Origin: a virus
Virus record (IMG/VR): IMGVR_UViG_3300036781_000420
Span: 1 to 64,000 of that record
Strand: one strand, 5' to 3'
Length of the DNA stretch: 64,000 bases
The notes under the pieces are model-generated. The model ran no database searches. It had not been told where the DNA came from and was given only the letters and a program-made list of their open reading frames with translations. The first letter of the stretch is position 1. Each line of letters begins with the position of its first letter. The position numbers and the translations under genes are program-made. Positions 10,058 through 26,440 of the stretch are shown piece by piece.

Positions 10058-10627
10058 ATGCCGGTCACCTCTACGGATATCGTCAACGAGGCAATCCAGC
10101 TCATCGGCGACAATCAGCCGCCGGTGACGGGCACCGCGCCCGATTTCGACACGTCCACGGCCGGCAAGGCAGCGGCGCAGGTCTACCTGCCGACCATCGC
10201 CGCCGTGATGCGGCAGTTCTCGTGGGATTTCTCCCGCAGCACCGCCGCGCTCGTACTTTCCGGCAATACCGCGCCTTATCCGTGGACGCTGGAATATCAA
10301 TATCCGGCCGGCGCCATCGAAGTATGGGAATTGTCGCCCCTTACCGAGGACGACCCCAACGATCCGCTGCCAGTCAATTTCGTTGTCGCCAACGCCATTG
10401 TAAACGGAGTGCAGCAGCGCGTCATCCAAACCAGCCTTGTCGATGCGCAGGCGATATTCGGCAACAACCCGAGCCCCGACACATGGGACGCGCTATTCCA
10501 CCAGGCGGCGGTACGGCTGCTCGCGAGCACGCTGGCCATGGCTATCGGCGGCAAGCCCGACGTTGCCCAAAGCATGCTATCTTCGGGTGCGGCCTTTGAA
10601 GGCTTGGGCGAGACGCGGAGAAACTGA
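10058..10627 (+). CDS. T7 gp11-like tail tubular protein A / adaptor, paralogue 1
   Basis: IVNEAIQLIGDNQPP...MRQFSWDFS parallels T7 gp11 VNDILASIGEPPV...QSRGWTFN. It also has PWTLEYQYP. Confidence 0.6.
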   Translation: MPVTSTDIVNEAIQLIGDNQPPVTGTAPDFDTSTAGKAAAQVYLPTIAAVMRQFSWDFSRSTAALVLSGNTAPYPWTLEYQYPAGAIEVWELSPLTEDDPNDPLPVNFVVANAIVNGVQQRVIQTSLVDAQAIFGNNPSPDTWDALFHQAAVRLLASTLAMAIGGKPDVAQSMLSSGAAFEGLGETRRN

Positions 10628-11253
10628 TGCCGATCACCAGCGTAAAGAATCCGGCCGATGCGGTGAATGTCGCGCTCGTCCGCATCGGCTGGAAGGGTGG
10701 CGAAATCGGCAACCTCTATGATGGCTCGGAAGCCGCCATGGTGGCGCTCAACATCTACGGCCAGACCCGCGATGAGCTGCTGCGCTCGCACGCATGGGAT
10801 TTCGCCCAGCGCACCATCAGCCTGTCGTTGTTGAAAGCGGCGCCGGTCGGCGGCTACGTGCCGGGCTTTACGCCATGGGACCCCACCACCGACCCGCCTA
10901 TCCCGTGGTTGTTCGAATACGCCTATCCGGAAGACTGCATCAAAATCCGCGCGGTCAAGCCGGTGCCGATCTTCCTGCCGAATTTCGACCCGTTGCCCAA
11001 TGTCTTCTCTACCGCCAACGACAACGACTTTACCCCGGCGCGTGAAGTGATCCTCACCAATGTTGAAAATTCGCTGTGCATCTACACCGCCCGGGTGACC
11101 GACCCGACGACATGGACCGCCGATTTCACGAATTCGTTCATCGACGCGCTGGGCGAATCGCTGGCGCCAGCCCTGACCTCGCTCGATGCGGCCAAGCTTG
11201 AGGCGGCAGAGGGCGGCGCCAGCGTGACAATGGCCAAGATGGAGCAGGGTTGA
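10627..11253 (+). CDS. T7 gp11-like tail tubular protein A / adaptor, paralogue 2
   Basis: AVNVALVRIGW...LLRSHAWDFAQRT...PWLFEYAYPEDCIKIR. The start is ATGA-coupled. Confidence 0.6.
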   Translation: MPITSVKNPADAVNVALVRIGWKGGEIGNLYDGSEAAMVALNIYGQTRDELLRSHAWDFAQRTISLSLLKAAPVGGYVPGFTPWDPTTDPPIPWLFEYAYPEDCIKIRAVKPVPIFLPNFDPLPNVFSTANDNDFTPAREVILTNVENSLCIYTARVTDPTTWTADFTNSFIDALGESLAPALTSLDAAKLEAAEGGASVTMAKMEQG

Positions 11254-12146
11254 TGGGCGGCTTTACACCGACCGACGTTGCCAATGAAGCGCTGGATTCC
11301 GTCGGCTGGCCGAACGTGCTCGGCGACATCGAGGATGGGTCGGAACAGGGCGCCATCCTGCTGCGCAAATACCGGCAATGTCTGATGCAATTGCTGCGCT
11401 CCGCAAACTGGGATTTCGCCCGGAAGACCGTGCCGCTGACGCTGCTGGCCGACGCCACCGGCAACACGCCGAATGTCGGCACCGCCGTCCCGATCCCGTG
11501 GATTTACGAATACGCTTACCCGACCGACTGCATGAAGGTGCGGTTCGTGCCGTTCAACTACGCCAACCAGGCCGACATGACGCCGGCCAACAACATCCAG
11601 ATACCGCAAACGCCGCTGCTGACCGGCGTCGGCACGCAAGCGCTGATCGGCACGCGGCTTCGCCCTTCGCGCTTCGTCATCGCCACCGATTTCAATTACC
11701 CGCCGCCGCAGGGCCAGCAGACATGGGACATTCAGGGGATCAGCCCGCAGGGCCGCACCGTGGTGCTCTCCAATGTCCGCATGGCCTCGGTTGTCTATAC
11801 CGCGCTGGTGCTTTACCCGAGCGTATGGGACTCGCTGTTCCGCGCTGCCTTCGTCGCCTATCTGGCCAGCGAAGTCGCCATGCCGCTATGGACAAAAACC
11901 GACCGCAAGTTCGGTTTGCAGATGCGCGGCGAACAGATCAACATCGTGCGCGCCAAGGTTCAGGAAGCCCGGCTCGTCGATGGCAATGAGGGGTTCTACT
12001 CCTCGGATATTCCGGTCGACTGGATGCAGAGCCGGCGCGTCGGCGGCGGCTGGACCGGCCGCAACGGTGGCCTCGGCGGCAATAATGACGGGGTATGGGG
12101 CTACGGTAACGACATGTGTTCGTTTGCCGATGGCACCGCCTACTGA
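11250..12146 (+). CDS. T7 gp11-like tail tubular protein A / adaptor, paralogue 3 (C-terminally extended)
   Basis: VANEALDSVGW...LLRSANWDFARKT...PWIYEYAYPTDCMKVR. It has a ~100-aa extra Gly-rich tail. Confidence 0.6.
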   Translation: MMGGFTPTDVANEALDSVGWPNVLGDIEDGSEQGAILLRKYRQCLMQLLRSANWDFARKTVPLTLLADATGNTPNVGTAVPIPWIYEYAYPTDCMKVRFVPFNYANQADMTPANNIQIPQTPLLTGVGTQALIGTRLRPSRFVIATDFNYPPPQGQQTWDIQGISPQGRTVVLSNVRMASVVYTALVLYPSVWDSLFRAAFVAYLASEVAMPLWTKTDRKFGLQMRGEQINIVRAKVQEARLVDGNEGFYSSDIPVDWMQSRRVGGGWTGRNGGLGGNNDGVWGYGNDMCSFADGTAY

Positions 12147-12158
12147 TCGGGAGAACCC

Positions 12159-15100
12159 ATGGCCGTCCCCTTTATCTCGCCGGCGTTCGTTACCGGCGAA
12201 GTGTCGCCTTCGGTCTTCGGTCGCGTCGATGTCGACCGCGAGCGCGTTGGCGTAACGACGATGCGCAACATGTACGTCAATTATCGCGGCGGCGCGAACA
12301 GCCGGGCCGGCACCGCCTTCGTCGGGTTCTCGAAGCAGACCGGCCGCAATTTCCCGCCGCGCCTGATCCCGTTTCAGTTCTCCATCGATCAGGGATTGGC
12401 GCTGGAATTCGGCCACCACTATATGCGCGTGATCCTCAATGGCGGCTATATCACCGAGCCGCCGGTAGCGATCGGCAATGCCAGCCAAGGCAACCCGGCC
12501 GTGCTCACCTTCGGCGCGCAGGGTGCCGTGACAGCGACGCCGAACAATGCCGGCGTGACGTTCTCCTATGCGCCGGGTGACCTGATCACGGTCGCCGGCG
12601 GTATTGCGCTGGCGCCCGCCGTGCTCGCCGTCACCACCAGCGAACTGGTGTCGATGCTCGCCAACAATCGCGGCTCGGGATACGGCGTCGGCGACACCAT
12701 AACGCTGGGCGGCGGTTCCTTCACCAGCAGCGCCGTCGTCACCATCGCCTCGCTCGCCTCGGTTGCCGCCTCCGGTTCGGTGGCCTTCGTCGGCAACCCG
12801 AGCGATGGCGATACCGTCACGCTCAACAGCGTGGTGTGGACTTTCAAGACGACGCCGACCGCCCCGGCGCAGACGCAAATCCTGACGACGCTCAACGCCA
12901 CGCTGCTGCAACTGGCTTCGGACTTGAATGCCTCGGTCAATGCGCTGCTGACGGTTGCGACCTATGGCGCGACGCCCACCGACCTGACGATTGTCTATGA
13001 CACGGGCGGCACCGCCGGCAACGCCTATACCCTGGCGGCGAGCGTCGGCATTCCATCGAGCGGCACCTTGACCGGCGGCACGGCAACCGGCGTCGGAACG
13101 GTCAACGTCACCACGAAAGGCGTTTTCACGGCGCTGCCGGGCGGCGGCCTGATGACGCAAAGCGCGACCTCCGGGGGCGGCGCCGGAGCGTCTTTCCAGA
13201 CAGCGGTCTTCGGCCCGCATGCCTTGTCGATTTCAAGCCCCGGCGCCTATTCCGTCGTGCCAACCAATCCTGTCATGCAGGCCAGCACCACCGGCATCGG
13301 CGTCGGCGCGACGTTTACCATGACATGGGCGGCGGTACCGGCCTTCGCCAACGGCGACTGGATTTTCATCACCGGCGTGCAGGGCATGACCGAACTGAAC
13401 GGCAATACTTACATCGTGGCCGGTGCGACGCCGACCACCGTCAACCTGCTCGATGTTTATGGCGATACCGTCAATTCCTCGGGGTTCGGCGCCTATACCG
13501 GAGGCGGCACCGCCTCGCGCATTTTTACCGTGGCGACCCCCTATGACGAACAAGACCTCGCCTATCTGAAGTTCACGCAATCGGCCGATGTGATGTCGAT
13601 CTGCTGCGTCAACCAGAAGACGCGCGCCGAATATGCGCCGCAAGACCTGGCTCGGATATCCGATACCGATTGGGTGTTCTCGCCCGCCGTCGCGGTGCCA
13701 TCCGTATCGCCGCCAACCGGGTTGACGGCCTCGATCACGGCCGGCGGCGCCGAGTTTTATCAATACGAAGTCACGGCGGTCTCGCCTGCCGACGGCACGG
13801 AAAGCATCGCCTCAAATGTCGCCAGGGTGCAAGGCGTCCCCATCTTCACGACGCAGGGACAGGTGAACCTCAAATGGAACGCCGTCACCAACGTCAATTC
13901 GTATAACATCTACAAGGCCCAGCCGAGTTTCGGTTCGGATGTCCCGACCGGCTCGCTGTTCGGCTATATCGGCAGTTCATACGGCAACGGCTTTCAGGAC
14001 CCGAACATCCTGCCCGATTTCGCGCAGGTGCCGCCGCGCCACGTCAACCCGTTCGCGCGCGGCCAGATCGCGGCGGTGAACGTCGTCACTGGCGGCAGCG
14101 GCTACAGTTCATCGGCAGCGGCTTCGATTGTCACCTCGACCGGTGCGGGCGCGGTGCTGCAATGCGTCGTGCAGAGCGGCGCCGTCGTGGCGGTAATCGT
14201 TGTCGATGCCGGCCACGATTACGCGGCAACCGATACCGTCGCCATCACCGGCGGCACCGGGGCGACGGCAACGGCGCTGGTCGGGCCGCAAAGCGGTACC
14301 TATCCCTCGGTCGTCTCGTATTTTCAGGAGCGCCGTGGCTACGCCAACACGCTGAACACCACCGACACCTATTTCCTGTCGCAGCCCGGTGCCTTCAAGA
14401 ACTTCGACTCGCGCATCCCGCCCATCGACACCGACGCAATTGTCGGCAGCCCGTGGTCGGTGCAGGTGAACGGCATCCAGTGGATGGTACAGACTTCCGG
14501 CGGGCTGCTGGTGATGACCGGGCTTTCGGCGTGGCTGCTGGTCGGCGCCGGCAGTTTCGCCACCAACGTGCAGGCGATTTCGCCCTCGACGCAGGATGTG
14601 GTGTCGCAATCCTTTACCGGCGTTTCGCCCACCGTGGTGCCGATCAAGATCAACGATGACATCCTCTATGTGAACTCGAAGGGCGCCTATTATTACGCGC
14701 TGCCCTACCAGCTCTATGTGCTGTCCGAACCGGTCGATATCACCGAGGCGTCGACGCATCTGTTCACCAATTTCCAGATATTAGAAAACGCCTGGTGCGA
14801 GCAGCCGAGCAAGGTGTTGTGGGCCGTTCGCGACGATGGCGTGCTGCTCAGCCTGACCTATTACAAGGCGCAGCAGGTGAACGGCTGGGGTCGGCATGAC
14901 ACCAATGGCCAGTTCATCAGCCTTTGTTCGATCACCGAACTGCCGATTGATGCGCTGTACGTCGCCACCAAGCGGTTCATTGGTACGCACACCGCCTATC
15001 TGGTGGAGCGCATGGATGACCGGCTGTGGACGCAGGTAGAGGATTGCTGGTGCGTCGATTGCGGGTTGTCGCTGCCGCAGCCCGAGCCCAACGCCACGCT

Positions 15101-16172
15101 GACCGCCAACCTGCCCTACGGCCTTGGCAGCCTCACCGGCGTAACGGCACTGGTAGGCGGTGCCGGCTATTCCGCAGCGACGACAGCCAGCGTGGTTGAC
15201 GACAATGGCAATGGGCCCGGGACCGGTGCCGTGGCGGCACTGACCATCGTGGCGGGCGCTATCACGGCCATTGCTTTTACCAGCCCCGGCGCCGGCTATG
15301 TGAGCCCAAGGCTGGTAATCACCGATCCGGCCAATACCGGCAGTGGTGCGTCGGCCCGGCCGGTTCTCAATACGGCGGCGACGTTCACGGCTTCGGCTGC
15401 GGTATTTGCCAGCGGCGATGTCGGCAAGGTGATCCGCATGGGTGGCGGCATCGCGACCATCACCGTTTTCAACAGCACCACATCGGTGGTCGCAACGATC
15501 ACGACGCCGATCACCGACCTGTTGCCGAACAGCGCCATCGCACCGAGCATCACCGGCATCGTTCGCCCGCAGGATGCCGGCGAATGGACGATGACACGGC
15601 CGGTGTCGCTGATCTCGGGACTTGATCACCTCATCGGCGCGACGGTGACCGGGCTCGCCGATGGCGAGGTGATCACGCCACGCGTCGTTTCGGCGGCCGG
15701 AACGGTAACGCTCGACACGCCGGCCAGCGCCGTCAATGTCGGCCTTGGCTTTCAGGCGCAATTGCAGGGCGTTTATCTTGAGGCTGGGCCGCCGACCATT
15801 CAGGGTCAGCGCAAGAAGATCGCGGGCGCCAGCGCTCTGATGGAATCCTCGCGCGGCGTCAAGATGGGCGGCTCGCAGCCGGATGGCTCGACGCTGAGCC
15901 CGCCGCAGATCGCCCCGGTATGGTCGGACCTCGACGAAATCCCCGATCAAGGCCAGATCGGCCAGCCGACGAAGCCATATAACAGCGCCGTCGTGCCGCT
16001 CTATACCAGCTATGTGCGCATCCCGGTGGGAGGCGGCTTCACCAAAACCGGACAGGTATCATTGCAGCAGGACAACCCGCTGCCGATGAACATCAATGCC
16101 ATCGTGCCGGAGGCGTGGACCGGCGATAATCCAGAACAGCAAGCCGCACCGCGCCAGCGCGCCGGAGGATAG
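12159..16172 (+). CDS. gp12-like tail tubular protein B / nozzle, enlarged (1337 aa)
   Basis: It directly follows the gp11-like genes. N-terminus FVTGEVSPSVFGRVDVDRERVGVTTMRNMYVNYRGGANSRAG fits the gp12 pattern GG.S..P..R......N....G..R.G. It contains three G(S/A)GY-containing inserted modules. Confidence 0.6.
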   Translation: MAVPFISPAFVTGEVSPSVFGRVDVDRERVGVTTMRNMYVNYRGGANSRAGTAFVGFSKQTGRNFPPRLIPFQFSIDQGLALEFGHHYMRVILNGGYITEPPVAIGNASQGNPAVLTFGAQGAVTATPNNAGVTFSYAPGDLITVAGGIALAPAVLAVTTSELVSMLANNRGSGYGVGDTITLGGGSFTSSAVVTIASLASVAASGSVAFVGNPSDGDTVTLNSVVWTFKTTPTAPAQTQILTTLNATLLQLASDLNASVNALLTVATYGATPTDLTIVYDTGGTAGNAYTLAASVGIPSSGTLTGGTATGVGTVNVTTKGVFTALPGGGLMTQSATSGGGAGASFQTAVFGPHALSISSPGAYSVVPTNPVMQASTTGIGVGATFTMTWAAVPAFANGDWIFITGVQGMTELNGNTYIVAGATPTTVNLLDVYGDTVNSSGFGAYTGGGTASRIFTVATPYDEQDLAYLKFTQSADVMSICCVNQKTRAEYAPQDLARISDTDWVFSPAVAVPSVSPPTGLTASITAGGAEFYQYEVTAVSPADGTESIASNVARVQGVPIFTTQGQVNLKWNAVTNVNSYNIYKAQPSFGSDVPTGSLFGYIGSSYGNGFQDPNILPDFAQVPPRHVNPFARGQIAAVNVVTGGSGYSSSAAASIVTSTGAGAVLQCVVQSGAVVAVIVVDAGHDYAATDTVAITGGTGATATALVGPQSGTYPSVVSYFQERRGYANTLNTTDTYFLSQPGAFKNFDSRIPPIDTDAIVGSPWSVQVNGIQWMVQTSGGLLVMTGLSAWLLVGAGSFATNVQAISPSTQDVVSQSFTGVSPTVVPIKINDDILYVNSKGAYYYALPYQLYVLSEPVDITEASTHLFTNFQILENAWCEQPSKVLWAVRDDGVLLSLTYYKAQQVNGWGRHDTNGQFISLCSITELPIDALYVATKRFIGTHTAYLVERMDDRLWTQVEDCWCVDCGLSLPQPEPNATLTANLPYGLGSLTGVTALVGGAGYSAATTASVVDDNGNGPGTGAVAALTIVAGAITAIAFTSPGAGYVSPRLVITDPANTGSGASARPVLNTAATFTASAAVFASGDVGKVIRMGGGIATITVFNSTTSVVATITTPITDLLPNSAIAPSITGIVRPQDAGEWTMTRPVSLISGLDHLIGATVTGLADGEVITPRVVSAAGTVTLDTPASAVNVGLGFQAQLQGVYLEAGPPTIQGQRKKIAGASALMESSRGVKMGGSQPDGSTLSPPQIAPVWSDLDEIPDQGQIGQPTKPYNSAVVPLYTSYVRIPVGGGFTKTGQVSLQQDNPLPMNINAIVPEAWTGDNPEQQAAPRQRAGG

Positions 16173-16174
16173 CC

Positions 16175-16720
16175 ATGCCGATCTTCGAGCGCGTCGAGGC
16201 CAAACCGCAGCATTGCGGCATGCTGGTGCGGCGCATGCGGTACGAACATCTGCTGGCGCTGCGACGCGTCGGCAAAGACCCGCACCACGAATTGCGGATG
16301 ACGTTCGATGCCTCGACGCACCGGCGCGCGTGGTTGCTCGGCGGCCAGATTGCCGGTCTGGGCGGTGTCATGGCGCCGATTGCCGCAGCGCGCGGCTATG
16401 TCTGGATGGTGATATCGGAACAGGCGGCGCGCCATCCGGTGGCGGTGATCCGCGAAGCGCGCCGACACATCGACGAAATCATGCTAGTGAAACGCGAGCT
16501 GGCCACCACGATCATCGGCGGCGATGAGGGAGCGAAGCGGTTGAGTGTATTCCTCGGGTTCCATGTCGAGCATGACGGCGATGGCTCCCCGGCCATCAGC
16601 CGCGCCGGGCGCCGTACGCTGTCAGAGCATCTGGACGGCACGCCGGAACTGCGCATTCCCATCGGCTCCGGCTACGCCATTGGGCTCGGCTATCACCACG
16701 ATGAAGAACAATTCGCCTGA
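16175..16720 (+). CDS. hypothetical virion-associated protein
   Basis: 181-aa ORF starting 2 nt after the tube-B stop. Family not recognised. Confidence 0.5.
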   Translation: MPIFERVEAKPQHCGMLVRRMRYEHLLALRRVGKDPHHELRMTFDASTHRRAWLLGGQIAGLGGVMAPIAAARGYVWMVISEQAARHPVAVIREARRHIDEIMLVKRELATTIIGGDEGAKRLSVFLGFHVEHDGDGSPAISRAGRRTLSEHLDGTPELRIPIGSGYAIGLGYHHDEEQFA

Positions 16721-17210
16721 GGAGGCCGCCATTTGTGTCGCAACCGCATCCCTGATCCTCGGCATTGCCGGAGCTGGCGCTTCGGCCTTCGGCAGTTATG
16801 AGACCGGCGCCTTCCAAGGTCAGGTCGCCAGAAACAACGCCATCATCGCCCAGCAGAACGCCGACTATGCGCGGCAGGCCGGTTCCGAACAGGCATCCAT
16901 CGCCAGTCGCAAGGGCGCGGCCGAGGGTGGCAAGATAAAGGCGGCACAGGCCGCAAACGGGCTCGACGTGAACAGTGGCTCGGCGCTCGATGTGCAGGCC
17001 GGCGAGCGCGAGACGAACCGCCTCGACGCCGAAACCGTGCTCAACAATGCCGAACTGACCGCCTATGGCTACACCACGCAGTCAAACAATTTCAAGGCGC
17101 AGGCGCAGCAGGACGAGACGGCCGGCGATATCGGCGCGGTAAGCTCGCTGCTAGACAAAGCGTCGAGCCTGGGGCCAAAATGGTCGCAGTCCGACACTTT
17201 CGGAGGATAA
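16701..17210 (+). CDS. internal virion protein with N-terminal transmembrane segment
   Basis: ATG 16701 lies in listed ORF 16545..17210. It has the hydrophobic segment AAICVATASLILGIAGAGASAF followed by an A/Q-rich helical part. The start is uncertain: GAGGAGG at 16719 precedes an in-frame ATT. Confidence 0.5.
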   Translation: MKNNSPEEAAICVATASLILGIAGAGASAFGSYETGAFQGQVARNNAIIAQQNADYARQAGSEQASIASRKGAAEGGKIKAAQAANGLDVNSGSALDVQAGERETNRLDAETVLNNAELTAYGYTTQSNNFKAQAQQDETAGDIGAVSSLLDKASSLGPKWSQSDTFGG

Positions 17211-17213
17211 GCC

Positions 17214-19913
17214 ATGGCCGATATCGGCTATAATCAGGGCATCGCCGACGTGATGCCGCAGACGCAGGCGCCGGACGATTATCAGAACGTGCAATCCAAG
17301 GTCGGCGCCGCCGTTTCTGGATTCGGCGATGCCGCCGCCGATACCGCCAAGTTTTTCGGCACGGTAGCGGCGGACAATGCTTTCAATGAATATCAGGATG
17401 TCACCACCAAAATCCTGCGCGGCGATCCGAACAAGACCACCATCGGGCCGGATGGCCAGCCCGTGCAGGATACCGGCTATTATGGCTTGCAGGGGCGTGC
17501 CGCGCTCGATGCCCGGCCGCAGGTCCAACAGCAGCTCGATGACGCGCTCAAGGAGATAGAGGGCGGCTTGCGGACGCCGCAGCAGTTGGCGCAATTCGAA
17601 AGCTATTCGCGCCGCTACCGCGCCTCGACCTTCACCGACATCGGCAACCATGCCAACACCGAGGCGCAGGGCTGGTACAAGCAGGTTAACGGCATCTCGG
17701 CGCAAAACGCGATCGATGCGATTTCAAGCCAGCCGCTCGACACGGCAACGGTGCTCACCAGCGCCGCCGACCTGACCAACGCCTATACCAAGCAGGCGCA
17801 GATCGATGGAGCCACGCCCGGCGATCCGATCTGGCAGGAAGCGATATTGCGCGCCCGGCAGGATGCATTCAAGGCGCAGGTGAGGGGCGTCGGCGCGACC
17901 GACCCATCACGGGCCGTGAACATGCTGCAAAAGAGTCAGGCACTGGCCGGAACCGATTACCCGACGCTCTATTCGGACCTGAAGAATCGCGCCGACGCGC
18001 AGGACGCGCTATCGCTGGCCACAGGCGCAACAACCGGCGCCGTCGGCAAGGTCACGCAGGACTATGCCGCTTCTCTGGCCAACCCGGCTCAGCCGATCTA
18101 TCGCACCGCAGTGACGGAAATGCCCGGCGGCATGTCGCCGAATGCGCTGGCCCGCACCGTGCAGATCGAAAGCAATGGCCATGCCGACGTGGTGAACGCA
18201 TCGGGCCATACCGGGCTCGGCCAGTTCTCCGCCGCGACATGGAAATTGTTCGGCGCCGGCGGCGATCCGAAAAACCCAGACGATGCCATCCGAGCGATCC
18301 AGCGCTATGCGGTGGCCAATTCCAACTATCTGACGCCGCGACTTGGGCGCGAGCCGACCGACGCCGAACTGTACCTCGCGCACCAGCAGGGCCCACGCGG
18401 CGCCGCGCTGCTGCTGACGCATCCCGACGCGTCGGCGGTATCGCTGCTCGGCCGCGACGCGGTGATCCGCAATCACGGCACCGCCAGCATGACGGCTGCG
18501 CAGTACGCGGCGATGTGGACGCGCCGGTTCAACGCCGCAACGCCCGGCAATATCGTCACCGGTACCGATCCGGTAGCGCCGCGCCAGTCGTTCGCACCGA
18601 CAACGGTTGCCGGTGGCCCCGCCGGACCGCAGAGCGTGCCCGCTGGCGGCATTCCCGCTTCGCCGGATGATGTTGGCCGGCCGGCTGCGCCGGTGCCGCT
18701 GGCGCCCCTCCCGAGCGGCAATGACAGGGGCTCGGCGTCGGCCAGCCCGGATGGCGTGCCGAACGTGGCCCCGGCCAGCGCGCCGCCGCTATCCAGCAAG
18801 GCGGCGGCGTTTCAGGCCATCGCCGCTTCCGATGCCTCCCCGGAAGTGAAACAGCGGGCCTACGCACTGGCCAGCCAGCAGCTCGCAACCCAAGCCGCGA
18901 TGGATGACGCGACGGCGGCGCAGCGCAGGCAGTTGAACGATCAGGCCGCCAATGGCTACATGACGCAAATCCTGAAACCGGGCGCCGATATCAGCGGCCT
19001 CATGGGCCAGGTCGCCGAGGACCAAAGTCTCGATTGGCAGACCAAGCAATCGCTATCGAGCGCGATCATTTCGCATGCCGGCGAGAGCGTCAGCGCGGCG
19101 AGCGCGGTATATGGCCCCGGCTTTTTTTCGCTTTATCAGCAGGTGACGGCCGGCAGCGACAGCCCATCGCGCGTCTCGGATGTCGGCACCATCCTGCGTC
19201 GCGCCGGGCAGGGCGGCGACCTGACGCTGGTCGGCGCGCAAAAGCTGATTGACGTTCTCGGCCAGATGAAGCGCAGCCCCGACGACGCGGCGATCAATAC
19301 CACCAAGACATCGCTGCTGGCTTATGCCAAGTCGAAGATATCGGCCGATACCACGGGCATGCCGCTGGTCCCGGGCATGGCGATGCTGCACGACGCGCAG
19401 GGCGAAATGCTGTTCAACTCGCGGTTCGTGCCGAAATTCGAGGCCGCCTACGATAAGTGGGTGGGGGCAGGCAAGAACCCGTGGGAATTTCTCACGCAAG
19501 AAAACGTGGACAAGTTGGCGACAGGGGTTCGCTCTCCGCACGAAATGGCGATGGCGAAGCTGATGGCGCAACAGACCGGGATCGACGCCTCGCAATTGCA
19601 GGCGCCGCCGGCACCGGCCGGAATAGACGAGGATTCGTGGCACGTCGTGGTGAACCTGCCGCCAATCATAGCCGCCGGCAAGCCGATATCGATGGATGGG
19701 TGGAGCAAGGCATTGCAATTGCTGGTCGCGCAACCGACGCGAACGCAGGTCGACCACCTCAACCGCGCCATGGGGCCGGATGCCGCGTTCGATGCGCAAT
19801 CGATCCTCGATGCCCTAGGCGTGCCCATCCGCGATCCTGCCTCGCCAGATGATCGTCAAAACATCCTGCTGCCGCTGACCGGCGCGGCGGCAAATGTGGA
19901 GCACGCGCCCTGA
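17214..19913 (+). CDS. internal virion / ejection protein with lytic transglycosylase (SLT) domain
   Basis: VQIESNGHADVVNASGHTGLGQFSAATW...AIRAIQRY at about 18150-18330 is an SLT catalytic-Glu motif. The protein is 899 aa and sits at the T7 gp15/16 position. Confidence 0.8.
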   Translation: MADIGYNQGIADVMPQTQAPDDYQNVQSKVGAAVSGFGDAAADTAKFFGTVAADNAFNEYQDVTTKILRGDPNKTTIGPDGQPVQDTGYYGLQGRAALDARPQVQQQLDDALKEIEGGLRTPQQLAQFESYSRRYRASTFTDIGNHANTEAQGWYKQVNGISAQNAIDAISSQPLDTATVLTSAADLTNAYTKQAQIDGATPGDPIWQEAILRARQDAFKAQVRGVGATDPSRAVNMLQKSQALAGTDYPTLYSDLKNRADAQDALSLATGATTGAVGKVTQDYAASLANPAQPIYRTAVTEMPGGMSPNALARTVQIESNGHADVVNASGHTGLGQFSAATWKLFGAGGDPKNPDDAIRAIQRYAVANSNYLTPRLGREPTDAELYLAHQQGPRGAALLLTHPDASAVSLLGRDAVIRNHGTASMTAAQYAAMWTRRFNAATPGNIVTGTDPVAPRQSFAPTTVAGGPAGPQSVPAGGIPASPDDVGRPAAPVPLAPLPSGNDRGSASASPDGVPNVAPASAPPLSSKAAAFQAIAASDASPEVKQRAYALASQQLATQAAMDDATAAQRRQLNDQAANGYMTQILKPGADISGLMGQVAEDQSLDWQTKQSLSSAIISHAGESVSAASAVYGPGFFSLYQQVTAGSDSPSRVSDVGTILRRAGQGGDLTLVGAQKLIDVLGQMKRSPDDAAINTTKTSLLAYAKSKISADTTGMPLVPGMAMLHDAQGEMLFNSRFVPKFEAAYDKWVGAGKNPWEFLTQENVDKLATGVRSPHEMAMAKLMAQQTGIDASQLQAPPAPAGIDEDSWHVVVNLPPIIAAGKPISMDGWSKALQLLVAQPTRTQVDHLNRAMGPDAAFDAQSILDALGVPIRDPASPDDRQNILLPLTGAAANVEHAP

Positions 19914-22900
19914 TGGCCGACGCCAACAATCCGTTCGAGGCGATCTTCAACGATGACGCCAACGGCACTCCGGGCAGCGCGATAACGGCGCCGTTCATTT
20001 CGTCGCAACCGAGCGCACCGGCGCCCAGCGCGGCGCCGACCGAACCGCCGGGCGCCAATCCGTTCGAGACGATCTTTGCCGCCGACGAATCGGCGCAGGA
20101 GGCGCAGGCCGAAAGCGGCCCATCGCCCGGCGCCGGCTTTCGCTCCACCGAACGCGTCGTAATACCGGCAATGGTCGGCATGGCCGCCGCTGGAGCCGGC
20201 GCCGAGACGGGGGGGTCAATCGGCGCTGCGGCCGGCGCGCTCTTCGGCGGTATCGGCGCCGTGCCGGGCGGCATCGTCGGCAGCATCATCGGCGCTGTGG
20301 TCGGCGGCGTTGCTGGCTCGGTGGTGACGGACAAGGCGCAGGAATTCGCCGCCAGCCCATTGCCCGACAGTTGGAAAGACGTGCTCGGCGGTACTGAAGA
20401 ACAGCAGCAGCGCGATATCAAATACCATCCGACCGAGACGTTTATCGGCGGCATGGTGCCTTATATGCTGACCATGCGACCCGGCGGGTTCGGTGCATCG
20501 TCATTGCCACAAAACGCCACGTCACTGCAAAAAATCGCCAGCAGCCCCGTTACCTCGCACCTTTTCGGCGGCGCGGTAATGGGCGGCATGGAACTGGGCA
20601 ATCAGGTCGCCGCAGGACAGGCGCCCGATTGGCGCAATGTCGCAATCGCCACCGGCGTCGGCGTCATCTTCAACAAGCCGAATCGGGTCGGGCAGCGGCT
20701 TAATAATATCGGTGAAGCCGCTGCAGCGCGGGTGGGCGCGCGGATCAATTTCGGCGAGCCCCGGACGACACCAGACAACGCTGCGGCTCCCGCCGCCGAA
20801 GCCGCTTCCGATATCACCGTGGCGCAAGCCGGCGATGCCAATGTCATGGGGCCCGGTATCACCGAGGATGTGTTCATGGGAAGCCATGAGCCATCGCCCG
20901 AAGCCGCGATGAATAATAGGAACGCGGCGCGCAACGAGACGGCGGTACTCGCTCCCCAAGCGGATGCCGTTGCGGATGTGCACGCCACCGCCCGCCGGCT
21001 GGAACCGGAGACCTTTGCCGAGTACGACGCACTCGATCAGCAGCGAACCGACCTTCGGACCCATATCGCGCAACTCGCGAACCCGGTCGACGAGGATATT
21101 GCGGCGGCGACGGCGCGACGCGATGCCGCACAAGCGCAACTCGACGAACATCTTGCGGCCAGAGGCGGCTATGCGGCTGGCCCGGCGGCGCGACGGCTGC
21201 GGGCGCAGGTTCGTGACGCGCAGGGCGATGTCGACGACATGACGCAGCGGCGCGAGCAGTTCGATGCCGGACAGGGGCGAGATACGCCCGAAATGACGGC
21301 GCTGCGCGAACAACTCATGGCGACCGATATTGCCATGCGCGATCTGGCGCCGCAGGTATCGTCCGCCTACCGCCGCGCCGCCGAGCATGGCGGCTCCGAA
21401 ATCATCGAGCCGGAAGCTCCGGCCACCGCGCCTGCGCAGCCGGCCCCGCCTGACGAGGTTCGCACCCCGGGCGAACAAGAGCCCACCCCGGGGGGCCCCG
21501 TCACCGCGTCTGTCGAAGAACAGGGCGCCGAGATTGCCCAGGATGTGGCTCGGCAGTTGATCGCGGCCGGCCGCTCACCCGCAGAGGCCGAGGCATCCGG
21601 GCAATTGATCGCCTCGCATTATCGCACCCGCGCCGCTCGCTTCGGCGGAGCGCTGGGCACACCGCTGGAATTGTATCGGGCCCAGGCCCCCGCCATTCGC
21701 GGTGTCGGCGCTGCCGCCCGCGCCATAGAGCCGGCGCAGACCGAGGGATTGCCCCGCACCCTTGTCCCGGACGAACCGTCGGAAAATCAAACGGAATTGT
21801 TTCAGCGCCAGATCGGGCCGGTTCCTGCGGAGAGGAAGGCCGCTCACCTCGCCGCCGCGAAGGATTTCGAAGACAAGCTCCGGGCTGAATTCGGCGATGA
21901 TTTTACCATCGAGACCGAGCAGGCCAGCGGCGGCAGCACCTATGTGACGGTGCGCCAGCGCTTGAAGAACAAGAATGGATCATACAAGAAAGCCCGTGGC
22001 GAGGCGCCGGTAGGGCGGACCGGTTTCAAACTGCGGATCGCCGACCATGGGTCGTATTACGGCTCAACGATTTCCGTTGATCCCGCCAGCGGCAATTCCA
22101 TCGAACAGGCATTGGCGCTGTTCAGATATGTGGCGAAACGCAGCGATGAAGCGCCCGCGTTCAACGTGTCCAACATCGACCCAGGCAGCGGCGAAACGAA
22201 GATAGCTCCAGCTACCTACGAACGCGATTCGGAGACAAACCCGATAAAATATCGGCGGGATGATTTGCGGCCGGTCCCTGAGCGCACGCTCTATCAGCCA
22301 GCCTATCACGGCTCGCCGCACATCTTCGACAGGTTCTCGACGGAGAAAATCGGGACTGGCGAAGGCGCGCAAGCCTACGGGCATGGGCTGTACTTCGCGG
22401 GCAAGAAACAGGTTGCGGATTGGTATCGCGAGCAACTGGCTGGCAGGCAACAAGTAAAGTTCGACGGGAAATACCTGCGTGAATTGTCGCAAGATCACAT
22501 TCTGGACCTTGCTCGCCGAGCAGGCGTCGAGAACGCATCTGCGAGCGATGTGCGCGACGTTCTGGCTGTCGCTCGGGACTCTGTTCTGGGATCAGACGAT
22601 GCGCGATCCGACCTTCGAGAATACGCCAAGATAGAGCGGCTTAATGCCTCTGAAGCCTCTGATGAGTCTATCAAACTCGATCACGCCCGACACGCGAACA
22701 TTGCGGAGGCATTTGCGGCAAGTGATTTGATCAAGAACGAAAAGCCCGGTCGCCTCTACCACGTCGACGTCCCCGAGCCCCACGAGCTTATGGATTGGGA
22801 CAAGCCGCTAAGCGAGCAGCCCGAAGGTGTGCGCGAAAAGCTGGCCAAAGCAGGTGAGTTTGCCGACAAGCCGCTACTTCCAACGGATACCGGCGCACAG

Positions 22901-25900
22901 ATTTACAACAAGATGGGAAGCCCACAGCAGGCGTCAGAGGCCCTTAAATGGGCTGGCATCCCCGGCCACCAGTACATCGGCCACGAGAGCCAATCGACCA
23001 ACTACGTCATCTACGACGACAGCCGCGTGCCGATCACCAACTACGAGCAAGGCAAGCGCGGCTCGATCACTTTCGCCGCCGGCAGGAAGCCGATCATCAA
23101 ACTGTTCGCGGATGCCAACGCCTCGACGTTCATTCATGAGACCGGGCACCAGTGGCTGGAAGAAATGCTGCGCGACGCCTCCCATGCGGCGGCCCCCGAT
23201 GCGGTGAAGGCCGATACCGCGACGGTGCGCAAATGGCTCGGCATGACCGAAGACCAAGCCTCTCCTGTAACGCGGCAGCACGAAAAATTCGCACGCGGCT
23301 TCGAGCAGTACATGCGCGAAGGGGTCGCCCCATCGGCTGGTCTCGCGCGGGTATTCGCCCAATTCAAGTCGTGGCTGTCCTCGATTTATGCGAGCATCAA
23401 GGGGCTCGGCACGCCGATCAATGAGGACATCCGGAGCGTGTTCGACCGGCTTATCGCCGAGGAGCCGAGCCGGACAGTGGTGGCGCCGGAACGGGCCACC
23501 CCGGAAAGCCCCGTCGACATCCATGAGCGCGAAGCCGCGACCGTCGAGCCGCATGAGGCGGAGCCGGCCATGGACCGCATCATCGCCGAGCGCGATCGAT
23601 ATCTCGCCGAACAACCCCCGGAGGTACTGAATGAAATCACCGCAGCAGAAACCGAGCAGCAGGCAGCAGATGCAGCCGCCGCCGCCGACGCTGGAACAGA
23701 AGGTGGCGCAAGCGAACCTGGACCGGCAGAAGTGGGTGCGGCTGGCGGCGAACCCGGGGTTGAGCCCGCAGGCGGCGCGGGTGGCGGCGAACATGGCGAG
23801 GTCGTCGGCGGCGGCAACGAAGCTAGGCCAGCGGGCCCAGGCTTGGCAGGAGAACGCGGACCAGCAGATGCCGGATTACGGGGCGAGCGATCCGAACCTG
23901 CTGGCGCTGCTCGGGCTAACCCCCTCAATCCCTCCCCCTCGGCCCTCCTTGGAGCAGCCGAGTCTCCTTTTCTCGACAAGGCCGGGAATATCCGAGTCGA
24001 AAACCTCACCACCAGCGCCGAAGTAGCTCAGGCTATCCATGATGCCGCCGATACCAACAACGGCTTCATTGACCAGCGTCGCGAACTCACCGACGGCGAG
24101 GTGCTGGACCTGGCCGACGCTCTCGGCATGGACGTGGCGCAGTTGAGCAAACGAAAACTTGGGGAAGCGTTCAACGCCGAACAAATCGTTGCGGCGCGCA
24201 AACTGCTCATCCAGTCGGCGACGCGCGTTTCCGAACTGATGAAAGCGGCGGCAATTGGATCCGATCAGGACGTGCTCGCCTACGCCGAGGCGCGAGACCG
24301 ACACGTAATGATACAGGGGCAGGTGGCCGGGATCACCGCCGAAGCCGGACGCGCATTGCGGGCGTTCCGCTCTCTTGCTGGGCAGGAAACGGCGACAGTC
24401 ATTGACCAGTTCCTGCGCACCGCAACTGGCAAGACGCTGTTCCAGCTCAGGGAGGAGGCCAAGCTTGGGGCCAAGCTCGACACCCCCGCCAAGGTATCCA
24501 AGATGCTTCGCGATGCGCAGAAGCGCGATTTCGGCCGGATGATCCTCGAATACTGGATCAACGGGCTGGTGTCGGGCCCGCGCACGCAAGTGACGAACGC
24601 TATCGGCAACACGCTGATGTCGTTGCAGTCGGCCGGGCCCGAAACGGCAATGGCGGCACTGATCGGCAAGGTGCGTAGCGCCGCCGGCCGCGAAGGCACG
24701 CGGGTCCGTATGGGGGAGGTCGGCGCTCAATTGCGAGCCGCCGGCCAATCCCTGCCCGTGGCTACCAAGGCGGCGCTGGACGCCATCCGAACCGGCAGAG
24801 GTATCGCGCTCCCCGGCGAAGAAATCTCGGCGCTGCCTTACCAGCCCGGCTCCGAACTGGCCCATACCGCATTTCTCGACGAAACGATGACCGCCGACCG
24901 CATCATGCCGGAACTGTTTGGTACGGTACGCGGTCTAACCGACGGGCTGGTGGCCATCGGCAAACTGGCGGCAGGCGGGGGCGATGCGCAGGCGCCGCTG
25001 CTGCACCTCAGATTCTCGCCGCTCGGCGCCATTCCTGATATCGCAATACGTGGCACGACGGTGGTCCCGCTCGGAACCACGCTCCGGGCGCCGACGCGCA
25101 TGCTGGCCGCAGGCGACAGCTTTTTTCGTGCCGCCAATTATTCGATGGCCAAGGCGCGGATATCGTACCGTCAGGCGGCAGAGGAGGGATTAACCGGCAC
25201 TGACCTGCACGCCCGCATCGGCGATCTCTACCAGAACCCCAGTTCCGAAATGATGGAGCTATCTCGCTCCAACGCCAGCGAGTTGACCTTCATGGCCAAT
25301 CGTAGCGAATTCGTTACGACACTCGGTCGGCTGTCGAACCTCAACATCATCGGTCTGCCACTGCTGAAATTCATCGCCCCGTTCATCAACACGCCGTCCA
25401 ATATCATCGAGCAGGCAGCGATGCACCGTACGCCCTTCGGCCTGGTTTCTCCGGAAATTCGGGCCGATCTCGCCGGCAAGAACGGCAATATCGCGCAGGA
25501 CACGGCAACCGCCAAGATGCTGCTGGGCAGCGCGTACGCCATCAGCTTCGGCGGCTTGGCGGCGCGTGGCCTGCTCAGCGGCTCCGGGCCGGCTGACCCG
25601 GAGCAGACGGCGCTATGGATGCTCGCCGGCAACCAGCCGCACAGCGCCCGCATCGGCGATATGTGGTACGACCTGCGCGCCCTTGGGCCGGTCGGCATGC
25701 TGGCCGGCATATCCGCCGATATGCTCGATGTCGCGCATGCCGCCGAGACCGGCGATGTCGCGGCAGCGGGCGCGGCGGTGCTGCACGCCTTCATGCAGAA
25801 CATTTTCGATGCCAGCTTCATGACCGGGCCGGCCGATCTTATCCAGGCGCTGGAAGACCACGGGCGCTACGGTCAGCCTTACCTGCGCAATTTCGCCGCT

Positions 25901-26440
25901 TCGTTCGTGCCGTTCTCTGGGCTCATGGGGCAGGCGACGCGCTCCACCGACCCCTATACGCGGCAGGCGCGCACGGTCATCGACACGATCAAGCAGAAAA
26001 TCCCCGGTCTGTCGGAAACCCTGATGCCGCGCCGCGATGTATGGGGCAACGAAATCCCGGCAGGGACGGCGCTGGGGCCATCGTTCCTTTCGGCGATCTA
26101 TACGCAGCAGGTGAGCCATGATCCGGTCAACCAGGCGCTGCTGAGCGCCGGCTATTGGCCCGGGCCGCCGGACAGGAAGATTCGCGGCGTGCTGCTCACC
26201 GATGAACAGTACGACCAATATTCGCAATATGCCGGTCGCATGGCCAAGTCGCGTCTCGATACGATGGTGCGTTCTCCGGCATGGGCCTCGTGGCCACCGG
26301 AGGTGCGGCACGAAGTGGTCAAGGAAACCTTCGCGCAATCGCGTGAGACGGCACGCGGCGCCATTATGGCGAAATGGCCCGACATCGTGGTAAAGGCGGT
26401 GCAGCAGAAGCTGGCGCCGCTCAAGGGGGCAAGCGAATGA
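19913..26440 (+). CDS. giant polyvalent internal virion / ejection protein (2175 aa)
   Basis: The start is ATGA-coupled. It has a glycine-zipper hydrophobic block (GGSIGAAAGALFGGIGAVPGGIVGSIIGAVVGGVAGSVV). It has a PARP-like YHGSPH...GHGLYFAG...NYVIYDD motif set (22304-23020) and HETGH (23135-23149). The C-terminal half is long and helical. Confidence 0.8.
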   Translation: MADANNPFEAIFNDDANGTPGSAITAPFISSQPSAPAPSAAPTEPPGANPFETIFAADESAQEAQAESGPSPGAGFRSTERVVIPAMVGMAAAGAGAETGGSIGAAAGALFGGIGAVPGGIVGSIIGAVVGGVAGSVVTDKAQEFAASPLPDSWKDVLGGTEEQQQRDIKYHPTETFIGGMVPYMLTMRPGGFGASSLPQNATSLQKIASSPVTSHLFGGAVMGGMELGNQVAAGQAPDWRNVAIATGVGVIFNKPNRVGQRLNNIGEAAAARVGARINFGEPRTTPDNAAAPAAEAASDITVAQAGDANVMGPGITEDVFMGSHEPSPEAAMNNRNAARNETAVLAPQADAVADVHATARRLEPETFAEYDALDQQRTDLRTHIAQLANPVDEDIAAATARRDAAQAQLDEHLAARGGYAAGPAARRLRAQVRDAQGDVDDMTQRREQFDAGQGRDTPEMTALREQLMATDIAMRDLAPQVSSAYRRAAEHGGSEIIEPEAPATAPAQPAPPDEVRTPGEQEPTPGGPVTASVEEQGAEIAQDVARQLIAAGRSPAEAEASGQLIASHYRTRAARFGGALGTPLELYRAQAPAIRGVGAAARAIEPAQTEGLPRTLVPDEPSENQTELFQRQIGPVPAERKAAHLAAAKDFEDKLRAEFGDDFTIETEQASGGSTYVTVRQRLKNKNGSYKKARGEAPVGRTGFKLRIADHGSYYGSTISVDPASGNSIEQALALFRYVAKRSDEAPAFNVSNIDPGSGETKIAPATYERDSETNPIKYRRDDLRPVPERTLYQPAYHGSPHIFDRFSTEKIGTGEGAQAYGHGLYFAGKKQVADWYREQLAGRQQVKFDGKYLRELSQDHILDLARRAGVENASASDVRDVLAVARDSVLGSDDARSDLREYAKIERLNASEASDESIKLDHARHANIAEAFAASDLIKNEKPGRLYHVDVPEPHELMDWDKPLSEQPEGVREKLAKAGEFADKPLLPTDTGAQIYNKMGSPQQASEALKWAGIPGHQYIGHESQSTNYVIYDDSRVPITNYEQGKRGSITFAAGRKPIIKLFADANASTFIHETGHQWLEEMLRDASHAAAPDAVKADTATVRKWLGMTEDQASPVTRQHEKFARGFEQYMREGVAPSAGLARVFAQFKSWLSSIYASIKGLGTPINEDIRSVFDRLIAEEPSRTVVAPERATPESPVDIHEREAATVEPHEAEPAMDRIIAERDRYLAEQPPEVLNEITAAETEQQAADAAAAADAGTEGGASEPGPAEVGAAGGEPGVEPAGGAGGGEHGEVVGGGNEARPAGPGLAGERGPADAGLRGERSEPAGAARANPLNPSPSALLGAAESPFLDKAGNIRVENLTTSAEVAQAIHDAADTNNGFIDQRRELTDGEVLDLADALGMDVAQLSKRKLGEAFNAEQIVAARKLLIQSATRVSELMKAAAIGSDQDVLAYAEARDRHVMIQGQVAGITAEAGRALRAFRSLAGQETATVIDQFLRTATGKTLFQLREEAKLGAKLDTPAKVSKMLRDAQKRDFGRMILEYWINGLVSGPRTQVTNAIGNTLMSLQSAGPETAMAALIGKVRSAAGREGTRVRMGEVGAQLRAAGQSLPVATKAALDAIRTGRGIALPGEEISALPYQPGSELAHTAFLDETMTADRIMPELFGTVRGLTDGLVAIGKLAAGGGDAQAPLLHLRFSPLGAIPDIAIRGTTVVPLGTTLRAPTRMLAAGDSFFRAANYSMAKARISYRQAAEEGLTGTDLHARIGDLYQNPSSEMMELSRSNASELTFMANRSEFVTTLGRLSNLNIIGLPLLKFIAPFINTPSNIIEQAAMHRTPFGLVSPEIRADLAGKNGNIAQDTATAKMLLGSAYAISFGGLAARGLLSGSGPADPEQTALWMLAGNQPHSARIGDMWYDLRALGPVGMLAGISADMLDVAHAAETGDVAAAGAAVLHAFMQNIFDASFMTGPADLIQALEDHGRYGQPYLRNFAASFVPFSGLMGQATRSTDPYTRQARTVIDTIKQKIPGLSETLMPRRDVWGNEIPAGTALGPSFLSAIYTQQVSHDPVNQALLSAGYWPGPPDRKIRGVLLTDEQYDQYSQYAGRMAKSRLDTMVRSPAWASWPPEVRHEVVKETFAQSRETARGAIMAKWPDIVVKAVQQKLAPLKGASE

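Follow-up and report, generated by a model that had tools for sequence, protein, structure and literature searches.

A gene for a protein of 2175 amino acids (aa) is located at positions 19913-26440, on the plus strand, of a 64,000-nt stretch of viral DNA (positions 1 to 64,000 of the IMG/VR virus record IMGVR_UViG_3300036781_000420; this whole stretch is hereafter referred to as the window). The gene, identified from the list of open reading frames (ORFs) and its translation, starts with ATG and occupies the gp16 position, that of an internal virion (ejection) protein. Its start codon overlaps the stop codon of the upstream gene for an 899-aa protein, and the gene was called identically on the independently assembled Logan contig SRR11833507_76542 (47.7 kb). 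By megablast against 50,697 phage records, no match to the gene was obtained, indicating the absence of a close relative among these sequences. In an earlier note on this DNA, the product was described as a polyvalent ejection protein that carries an ADP-ribosyltransferase (ART) module and an HExxH peptidase module.

The T7-type tail and ejection module in which this gene is located is anchored by a tail protein B homologue of 1337 aa (12159-16172; phrog_376, E 3e-133), for which tblastn gave matches to the tail proteins of Pseudomonas podophages. This gene is followed on the same plus strand by two small internal virion protein genes at the gp13 and gp14 positions (16175-17210; phrog_308, E 5e-14 and phrog_418, E 7e-30) and by the gene for the gp15-position protein of 899 aa (17214-19913). 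The latter carries a transglycosylase domain (phrog_4067 transglycosylase, E 3.6e-21), with a score against the Pfam Transglycosylas model (26.5 bits) slightly below the cut-off of 27. Pfam detected no N-terminal lytic transglycosylase domain in the 2175-aa protein, this domain being found on the upstream 899-aa protein. The C-terminal region of the 2175-aa protein (aa ~1331-2175; 23903-26437, plus strand) is gp16-like, matching the internal virion protein family phrog_6651 (E 7e-27), and in tblastn searches its C-terminal ~850 aa matched 'internal virion protein D' genes in podophages of Roseobacter, Pelagibacter and Synechococcus and in Desulfovibrio phage ProddE. In Pseudomonas phage AF, gp12-gp16 follow this order as well, a tail protein gene being followed by those for two internal virion proteins, a lysin-bearing protein and a 2213-aa 'hypothetical protein'. 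Among the other products of the window, Pfam identified a GP7-type major capsid protein and a head-tail connector of the T7 type. Since the neighbouring PHROGs, the C-terminal homology to internal virion protein D, the gene order of phage AF and the presence of connector and capsid genes all agree, the assignment to the gp16 position is sound, and the earlier placement of this gene among the ejected internal core proteins of T7-like phages was correct. The product is most likely the large gp16-type ejection protein of a short-tailed phage (podovirus), and its homologues suggest that it would be packaged and ejected.

Near the start of the protein, aa ~85-140 (20165-20332, plus strand) form a Gly/Ala-rich hydrophobic block of the glycine-zipper type, probably a membrane-inserting segment. 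The block gave weak matches to phrog_1047, phrog_16692 and DUF6861 and is kept in the family consensus (alignment A3), so the membrane-type block that the earlier note had recognized at this place is conserved across the family. Within its coding sequence, a 33-nt periodic repeat of 2.7 copies with 74% matches was noted at 20219-20308. The next segment, aa ~150-599 (20360-21709, plus strand), is a conserved N-terminal region of the family as detected by phmmer, including a coiled-coil-like stretch, and its C-terminal end forms the left border of a variable slot. The slot covers aa 600-1045 (21710-23047, plus strand), coincides with a segment of low GC content, and consists of an unassigned region followed by an ART domain. 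Within and beyond the slot we located the motifs AYHGSPH from aa 797 (nt 22301), GHGLYFAG from aa 823 (nt 22379-22402), GHESQSTNYVIYDD at aa 1023-1036 (nt 22979-23020) and HETGH from aa 1075 (nt 23135-23149), in agreement with the positions given before for all of the quoted ART and HExxH motifs; the distance from NYVIYDD to HETGH is 45 aa, close to the earlier estimate of about 40.

The ART-fold domain, related to ART-PolyVal, covers aa 795-1041 (22295-23035, plus strand), as defined by homologues, an AlphaFold2 (AF2) model and profile alignment with hhalign; its key residues are H799, S801, E817, Y827, D963, P1017 and N1030. A homologue search with aa 701-1250 identified 2526 proteins. About 100 of the 120 homologues listed align at ~aa 797-1041 with 30-40% identity, and most of these carry a precomputed PF18760 (ART-PolyVal) assignment. 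The Pfam model of ART-PolyVal is 140 positions long and has a gathering threshold of 31.2 bits, which was exceeded by P0072 (34.5 bits), P0095 (31.7), P0002 (47.5) and P0035 (36.2), proteins that are 34-39% identical to the window protein over ~245 aa. For profile-profile comparison, a canonical ART-PolyVal alignment of 16 domains was used, including P0004 (full-length Pfam match, 67.7 bits) and the virion RNA polymerase (vRNAP) of Roseovarius Plymouth podovirus 1. A global hhalign run with the helical insert of the subfamily left in mis-aligned the two families, and the insert was removed for the final comparison. With the insert removed, the alignment of the ART subfamily to the canonical domains extends over 125 columns and includes every core strand, the first and the last among them (probability 97.0%, E 9.2e-11). 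Because of this match, aa 795-1041 is, as judged by sequence profiles, a true but divergent member of the ART-PolyVal lineage; jackhmmer seeded with a canonical ART-PolyVal domain also recruits members of the subfamily. The orthologue L004 shows 76% identity in the N-terminal ART block and ~41% in the remaining protein, a pattern that argues for strong constraint on the ART block.

The AF2 model of the ART domain (29 sequences; pLDDT 87.7) contains strands at aa 795-801 (with H799), 825-829 (with Y827), 847-850, 940-943, 947-953, 1018-1022, 1029-1033 and 1041-1046. The helical insert, aa ~852-938 (22466-22726, plus strand), is seen in the model as helices at aa 860-936; its length varies among homologues and it is poorly conserved in alignment A1. 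The ART-PolyVal family is characterized by His on strand 1, Tyr on strand 2 and Asp on strand 5, as described by Iyer et al. (PMC5512222). Residue conservation was counted in 80 non-identical domains of the subfamily. H799 and Y827, each located on a core strand of the model, are present in 79 of the 80, and their counterparts in canonical ART-PolyVal lie in YHGT and GxYFT, respectively. Near-invariant in the subfamily are H799, S/T801, E817 (77 of 80), Y827, D963 (77 of 80) and N1030, and Q969 is kept in 78 domains. In the 16 canonical domains, the Asp of G[HY]DG is conserved at the 80% level, and we infer that it is the strand-5 Asp of the H-Y-D triad. The ART fold and the NAD-site His and Tyr are supported by these comparisons, and the domain is a candidate enzyme. 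The earlier description as a PARP/diphtheria toxin-like ART thus holds with respect to the ART superfamily, through the relationship to ART-PolyVal; its assignment to the H-Y-E clade is not supported, ART-PolyVal being of the H-Y-D type.

The HExxH domain, aa 1046-1197 (23048-23503, plus strand), includes HETGH (23135-23149) and an invariant Glu1124 (23282-23284), which together form a predicted gluzincin-like metal site. A match to phrog_9880, a family of unknown function, was found for aa 1040-1183 (E 2e-44). H1075, E1076, H1079 and E1124, the last 45 residues downstream of the HExxH motif, are invariant both in alignment A2 of 23 sequences (the window protein and 22 homologues) and in A3. 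The strict pattern of HExxH plus E[KRQ][FW]A is fitted by 141 of 152 domains; of the ten exceptions listed, most retain HExxH together with a comparable Glu-bearing helix further downstream. The AF2 model of this domain (pLDDT 79.9) shows two short strands, the HExxH helix (aa 1070-1089) and, on the helix after next (aa 1120-1136), E1124; this predicted order of secondary structures is compatible with the zincin core (PMC5512222). When the model was compared with BFVD using Foldseek, only homologous unannotated giant phage proteins were found. The term 'zincin-like' is used here on the basis of the invariant gluzincin-type ligand set and the compatible secondary structure, not of demonstrated family membership. 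Downstream from this domain, an acidic, Gly/Pro-rich low-complexity linker of aa ~1200-1330 (23510-23902, plus strand), with low pLDDT at its start in the A2 model and poor conservation in A3, leads to the gp16-like C-terminus.

At the junction before the HExxH domain, 23033-23056 (aa 1041-1048), a conserved sequence of the form I-x-x-[YFH]-[EQ]-Q-x-x-[RK]-G was noted, reading Y-E-Q-G-K-R-G at the window junction and 'ELFQxARG' in the A3 family consensus; it is also present in P0004, and it occurs in members with either ART type as well as in those with other cargo. This motif is a candidate self-cleavage site. P0069, a protein of 682 aa from NCBI, seems to be a translational GTPase of the BipA/TypA type (PF00009, PF00679 and PF03144) with the phage HExxH domain joined to its C-terminal end, this part being 47% identical to aa 1045-1184; either a chimeric assembly or the insertion of a prophage into the gene could account for the fusion.

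The distribution of these domains was analyzed in the whole family. An exhaustive search with a hidden Markov model (HMM) of the HExxH domain detected 12,176 clusters at E<=1e-3, including 4,962 at E<=1e-30. As representatives, we used the 145 new proteins among the 150 matches listed from this profile search. The gp16-like C-terminus is common to 125 of the 145, and the N-terminal region (phmmer with aa 1-600) to 115. Between the conserved N-terminal region and the HExxH domain, the gap ranges from 4 to 2457 aa in 119 relatives, compared with 449 aa in the window protein, and is as short as 26 aa or less in 38 of the 119. P0027 lacks aa 590-1041 entirely, and the orthologue L005 carries in the slot a different insert of ~300 aa without any Pfam match. 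An ART of either type is present in 28 representatives (~19%), the subfamily described here in 16 and canonical ART-PolyVal in 19. In 21 of these 28 proteins, the ART ends 23 aa or less before the HExxH domain, and in the window protein about 8 aa ahead of it. Pfam searches with 23 other cargo-bearing members identified ART-PolyVal in three, LPD23 in one and GNAT in one, the remainder giving no match. The cargo region upstream from the ART domain, aa 600-790 (21710-22282, plus strand; ~190 aa), matched nothing in Pfam, PHROG, NCBIfam (for which the search gave nothing at all) or PDB sequences and is present in none of the other 144 representatives; it may be a small domain, a second effector or an adaptor. 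Taken together, these comparisons establish the boundaries of the domains and their homologies, the variability of the slot and the position of the ART next to the HExxH domain.

The GC content is in agreement with this architecture at the border of the cargo. In 300-nt sliding windows, GC ranges from 0.56 to 0.60 between 21.9 and 23.1 kb, compared with 0.61-0.72 in the rest of the gene; for aa 600-1045 it is 0.588, against a window mean of 0.630 (standard deviation 0.024), corresponding to the 4.8th percentile. The GC at third codon positions is 0.67-0.70 in this segment and 0.74-0.79 in its flanks. The dip that the earlier note had seen at ~22.0-23.1 kb is therefore present, though modest. 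It coincides with the cargo and stops where the HExxH domain starts. Since the HExxH domain is also shared across the family, its sequence distribution identifies it as a core element of these giant proteins, not as a module acquired with the ART, and the ART-bearing cargo looks like the mobile part of the protein. Of the module acquisition proposed earlier from GC content, the part concerning the ART segment, accessory and absent in some orthologues, is upheld, while that concerning the HExxH domain is not.

Members of the same ART subfamily were also observed in other contexts. P0079, a protein of ~417 aa from another phage, is encoded directly after the portal gene (in the order terminase, portal, ART protein). 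This is the usual place of head-packaged MuF-type proteins. The position of P0079 suggests a second, MuF-like delivery route for the ART subfamily, and fits virion delivery on two carriers. At locus L009, a subfamily member of 407 aa is located in a phage structural region in which no portal was identified.

Polyvalent phage proteins have been described by Iyer, Burroughs, Anand, de Souza and Aravind in 2017 (PMC5512222), and injection of such ARTs was predicted by Iyer et al. in 2017 and 2022 (PMC5512222, PMC9503650). A protein is polyvalent if at least two unrelated effector-type domains are present in one large polypeptide of the virion module, as a rule accompanied by LPD domains, and the window protein combines an ART with a conserved HExxH domain in 2175 aa. 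The earlier claim of a polyvalent protein is thereby confirmed, and LPD22 and LPD23 are found in syntenic relatives. In the prototype, the vRNAP of Roseovarius Plymouth podovirus 1 (CBX87992.1), a giant multidomain protein likewise encoded among late structural genes and predicted to be injected, an ART of the H-Y-D type (ART-PolyVal / N4-ART) is located upstream of HExxH as it is here, with ART-PolyVal at aa 1023-1096 and M90/SprT-like matches at aa 1252-1387. In contrast to the prototype, the window protein has neither an RNA polymerase module nor a Pfam-detectable LPD domain; its ART is divergent, with Pro for the conserved Asp and a helical insert of ~90 aa; and its HExxH domain, unmatched by Pfam peptidase models, resembles the metallopeptidase (MPTase) of the prototype at the motif level only. 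At the same genome position as the window protein are gp039c of Caulobacter phage Jess A (QCW21969.1, 2039 aa, Rauchvirus, annotated as 'lysis protein'), which carries LPD22, ART-PolyVal and HExxH, and gp16 of Pseudomonas phage AF (YP_007237191.1, 2213 aa), which carries LPD22, LPD23 and HExxH but no ART. In both phages, the gene is preceded by those for tail protein B, for two internal proteins of small size and for a protein with a lysin, and both products share the HExxH domain of the window protein (E 4e-49 for Jess A and 2e-54 for AF); outside the HExxH region, matches to the profiles of the window protein's family are weak or missing. The ART-PolyVal of Jess A gp039c is full and canonical (79.3 bits) and ends ~10 aa ahead of the HExxH domain. 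LPD22 and LPD23 of these two proteins are absent from the window protein. Because Jess A gp039c and AF gp16 are polyvalent proteins according to PMC5512222, the class is already known, and the window protein adds one more example to it rather than representing a novel type of system.

Comparison was also made with proteins that are delivered to the host by other phages. T7 gp16 (internal virion protein D) and its podovirus homologues are, as here, the last and largest of the core or ejection proteins, with a homologous C-terminal region. A peptidoglycan-cleaving domain is carried on either gp15 or gp16, this swap having been noted before (PMC8954989), and in the window it is on the gp15-position protein. 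With 2175 aa, the window protein is larger than the gp16 homologues of 609-1337 aa, and internal ART cargo or an HExxH domain in gp16-like proteins is not mentioned in the same review of ejection proteins (PMC8954989). T4 Alt represents the same concept, an ART that enters with the genome and modifies proteins of the host as infection begins (PMC5512222, PMC9503650), but it belongs to the R-S-E clade and is a separate protein packaged via a capsid-targeting sequence instead of being embedded in an ejectosome protein, and no sequence relationship was seen. An analogous layout is found in the N4 vRNAP gp50 (PMC13434306), in which a membrane-active N-terminus is followed by an enzymatic module, an HExxH-bearing C1 and a large helical C2; gp50 takes the part of gp16 in the ejectosome, and its cargo is an RNA polymerase. 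Homology of its HExxH and C-terminal parts to the window protein was not demonstrable by hmmsearch or hhalign (E 0.04-0.5). Since only the motif helix of C1 aligns with the HExxH profile and the scores are not significant, a similar layout is claimed without homology.

As the best explanation of these observations, and one that we hold to be fairly probable, the 2175-aa protein is a podovirus gp16-type ejection protein with an ART-fold cargo in a slot beside the HExxH domain, delivered and acting as follows. The order of domains is an N-terminal region with the membrane-type segment, the cargo slot, the HExxH...E domain, the low-complexity linker and the gp16-like C-terminus. Packaged in the core of the capsid, the protein would leave the particle before the DNA does; its N- and C-terminal parts would contribute to an envelope-spanning ejectosome, and the cargo would become exposed in the cytoplasm at the very onset of infection. 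The ART domain may then, by analogy with T4 Alt, use NAD+ to modify a host macromolecule, either for take-over or for counter-defence. The HExxH domain would bind a metal and most likely cut in cis near the conserved junction, thereby freeing or activating the cargo, or maturing the protein. For NAD+-dependent catalysis and its target, and likewise for metal binding and proteolysis, this proposal draws on residue conservation and domain adjacency.

A number of observations weigh against this reading. The window protein itself stays below the threshold of the Pfam ART-PolyVal model, scoring 16.8 bits over its full length and 19.9 bits when aa 730-1262 are searched separately, and its match is restricted to model positions 10-46, the N-terminal third; the membership in ART-PolyVal suggested in the earlier note was thus not recovered for this protein directly, but through the subfamily members that pass the threshold and the significant profile-profile comparison. 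With the ART model, Foldseek detected no significant match in PDB; the only coherent fold family in its best matches, tankyrase PARP domains and diphtheria toxin (DT), aligned at E 0.2-2.5, TM 0.26-0.37 and rmsd 8-12 Å, the helical insert probably degrading these alignments, and the PDB sequence search with the subfamily profile gave nothing meaningful. The Pfam scan of 49 window ORFs revealed no macro or ARH partner gene. At the active site, the canonical G[HY]DG Asp aligns to Pro1017 of GIPG, a position occupied by P in 59, K in 10 and D in three of the 80 subfamily domains, and by strand order the equivalent of the PARP/DT Glu is N1030, leaving no acidic residue there. The earlier statement that Asn replaces the catalytic Glu proved to be a misreading: position 1030 is Asn in 78 of the 80 members and thus is a feature of the subfamily, not a lineage-specific loss of Glu, and the conserved Asp of the family maps to Pro1017. 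The window protein departs further from its own subfamily, having Gly at position 1023 (D in 67 of 80) and Gln at 1027 (R in 69 of 80) and a loop between the last two core strands that is ~5-8 residues shorter, departures in this loop that are partly shared by its closest relative P0003. On these grounds the ART-fold domain might not be a protein ADP-ribosyltransferase, but a pseudo-enzyme, a binder of NAD+ or ADP-ribose, an NADase acting on NAD+ or NAD-derived immune signals, or a modifier of nucleic acids or small molecules, the ART superfamily indeed including DNA, RNA and small-molecule modifiers as well as NADases (PMC9503650). We consider this rather unlikely, since ~30 residues around the His and Tyr motifs are near-invariant, a conservation that favours catalysis over a decayed domain, and the conserved E817 and D963 could provide the missing acid, Q969 being a further candidate. 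In addition, PARP-family members without Glu remain mono-ARTs.

For the HExxH domain, no Pfam peptidase model, including MPTase-PolyVal, matched the 2175-aa protein at E<=1, and among the 23 members of A2 only marginal matches were obtained (Peptidase_M78 in two, best E 0.088; Peptidase_M1 in one, E 0.17). PDB sequence profile searches with this domain and with the whole family yielded no peptidase match and nothing meaningful, Foldseek comparison of the model with PDB gave only noise without any zincin or metallopeptidase, and hhalign against the MPTase of the prototype vRNAP aligned only the motif helix, without significance, as it did for N4 C1. The zincin/MPTase-PolyVal assignment of the earlier note is thus not supported by any Pfam peptidase model or solved fold, and is based on the invariant H-E-x-x-H...E residues only. 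The domain might accordingly bind a metal for structural reasons, serving the folding or encapsidation of the protein or the assembly of the ejectosome, or catalyze other chemistry, as do the alpha-ketoglutarate-dependent HExxH oxygenases, in which case the cargo would stay attached. This possibility, to which we give a minor but real weight, agrees with the retention of the domain where the slot is empty (the 38 relatives with a gap of 26 aa or less), indicating that its role is not cargo release alone. It also agrees with the N4 vRNAP, of which the similar HExxH-containing region is needed for encapsidation while the protein is reported to be packaged unprocessed (PMC5512222), and for which the 2026 structure paper left the role of HExxH open and noted non-peptidase HExxH enzymes (PMC13434306). 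Against it stand the full gluzincin-type ligand set including the general-base Glu, the agreement of the secondary structure with the zincin core of PMC5512222 and the tight abutment of effector domains on the HExxH domain. A purely structural protein with chance motif matches and no enzymatic module, conceivable because short motifs such as HExxH are common and the window protein alone stays under the Pfam thresholds, is in effect refuted: each motif lies inside a discrete, widely conserved domain with thousands of homologues (the 2526 matches and 12,176 clusters given above) and consists of near-invariant residues, the profile-profile link to ART-PolyVal is significant, and both AF2 models are confident.

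Several other features of the window were noted. Upstream of the tail protein B homologue, 10058-12146 contains a run of three paralogues (189, 208 and 298 aa), each of which matches phrog_394, a family of tail proteins (E 5e-17 to 3e-25); a single tail-tubular-A-type gene would normally be expected at this place in related phages. The tail protein B homologue itself, with 1337 aa, is unusually long compared with the 712 positions of the PHROG profile, and its insert matched a ubiquitin-E1 FCCH domain at 29.0 bits, just under the Pfam cut-off of 29.5, a Vibrio phage homologue being annotated likewise. A 27-nt tandem repeat of 18.5 copies with 87% matches is located at 42441-42939, within the minus-strand ORF 42281-43357. 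One of the 49 scanned window ORFs gave a Pfam collagen triple-helix match, for which ORF 42281-43357 with its 9-aa repeat is the likely source. The Logan contig ends at about this array, and the repeat probably broke that assembly; the possibility that the window is a concatemer, raised by the shorter contig, was rejected in view of the absence of long internal repeats. The same Pfam scan identified a DnaA C-terminal helix-turn-helix (HTH), an HTH_3 regulator, a K1-lyase C-terminal domain and a TIG domain, and no RNA polymerase. As judged by ORF size, the portal and capsid genes are probably located in the last part of the window, at ~58-64 kb.

The present analysis adds to the known polyvalent proteins the active site of a divergent ART subfamily, a widespread HExxH domain without a curated model and the cargo-slot architecture of gp16-type proteins, additions that are useful but unsurprising to a specialist familiar with PMC5512222. 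With respect to annotation, the labels 'hypothetical protein' and 'lysis protein' on the ~2000-aa genes of phages in culture, AF and Jess A among them, mask such modules. To our knowledge, no ART-PolyVal-type enzyme has a known target. As a more speculative extension, for which we claim no great likelihood, gp16-type ejection proteins might be the general effector-delivery chassis of a large podovirus group, composed of a membrane-active N-terminus, a hypervariable slot, a cargo-freeing HExxH protease and an ejectosome C-terminus; N4-type vRNAPs would then be built alike, their cargo being an RNA polymerase, and the ART with its moved catalytic acid (conserved E817, D963 and N1030) would represent a new arrangement of the H-Y-D active site. 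The fixed chassis with a variable slot beside the HExxH domain suggests a testable rule for the placement of injected effectors in podoviruses, and through the slot, thousands of cargo domains could be mined for functions in anti-defence. Should the ART be both active and delivered, the host would be modified before any phage gene expression, giving the T7-type ejectosome a function like that of T4 Alt.

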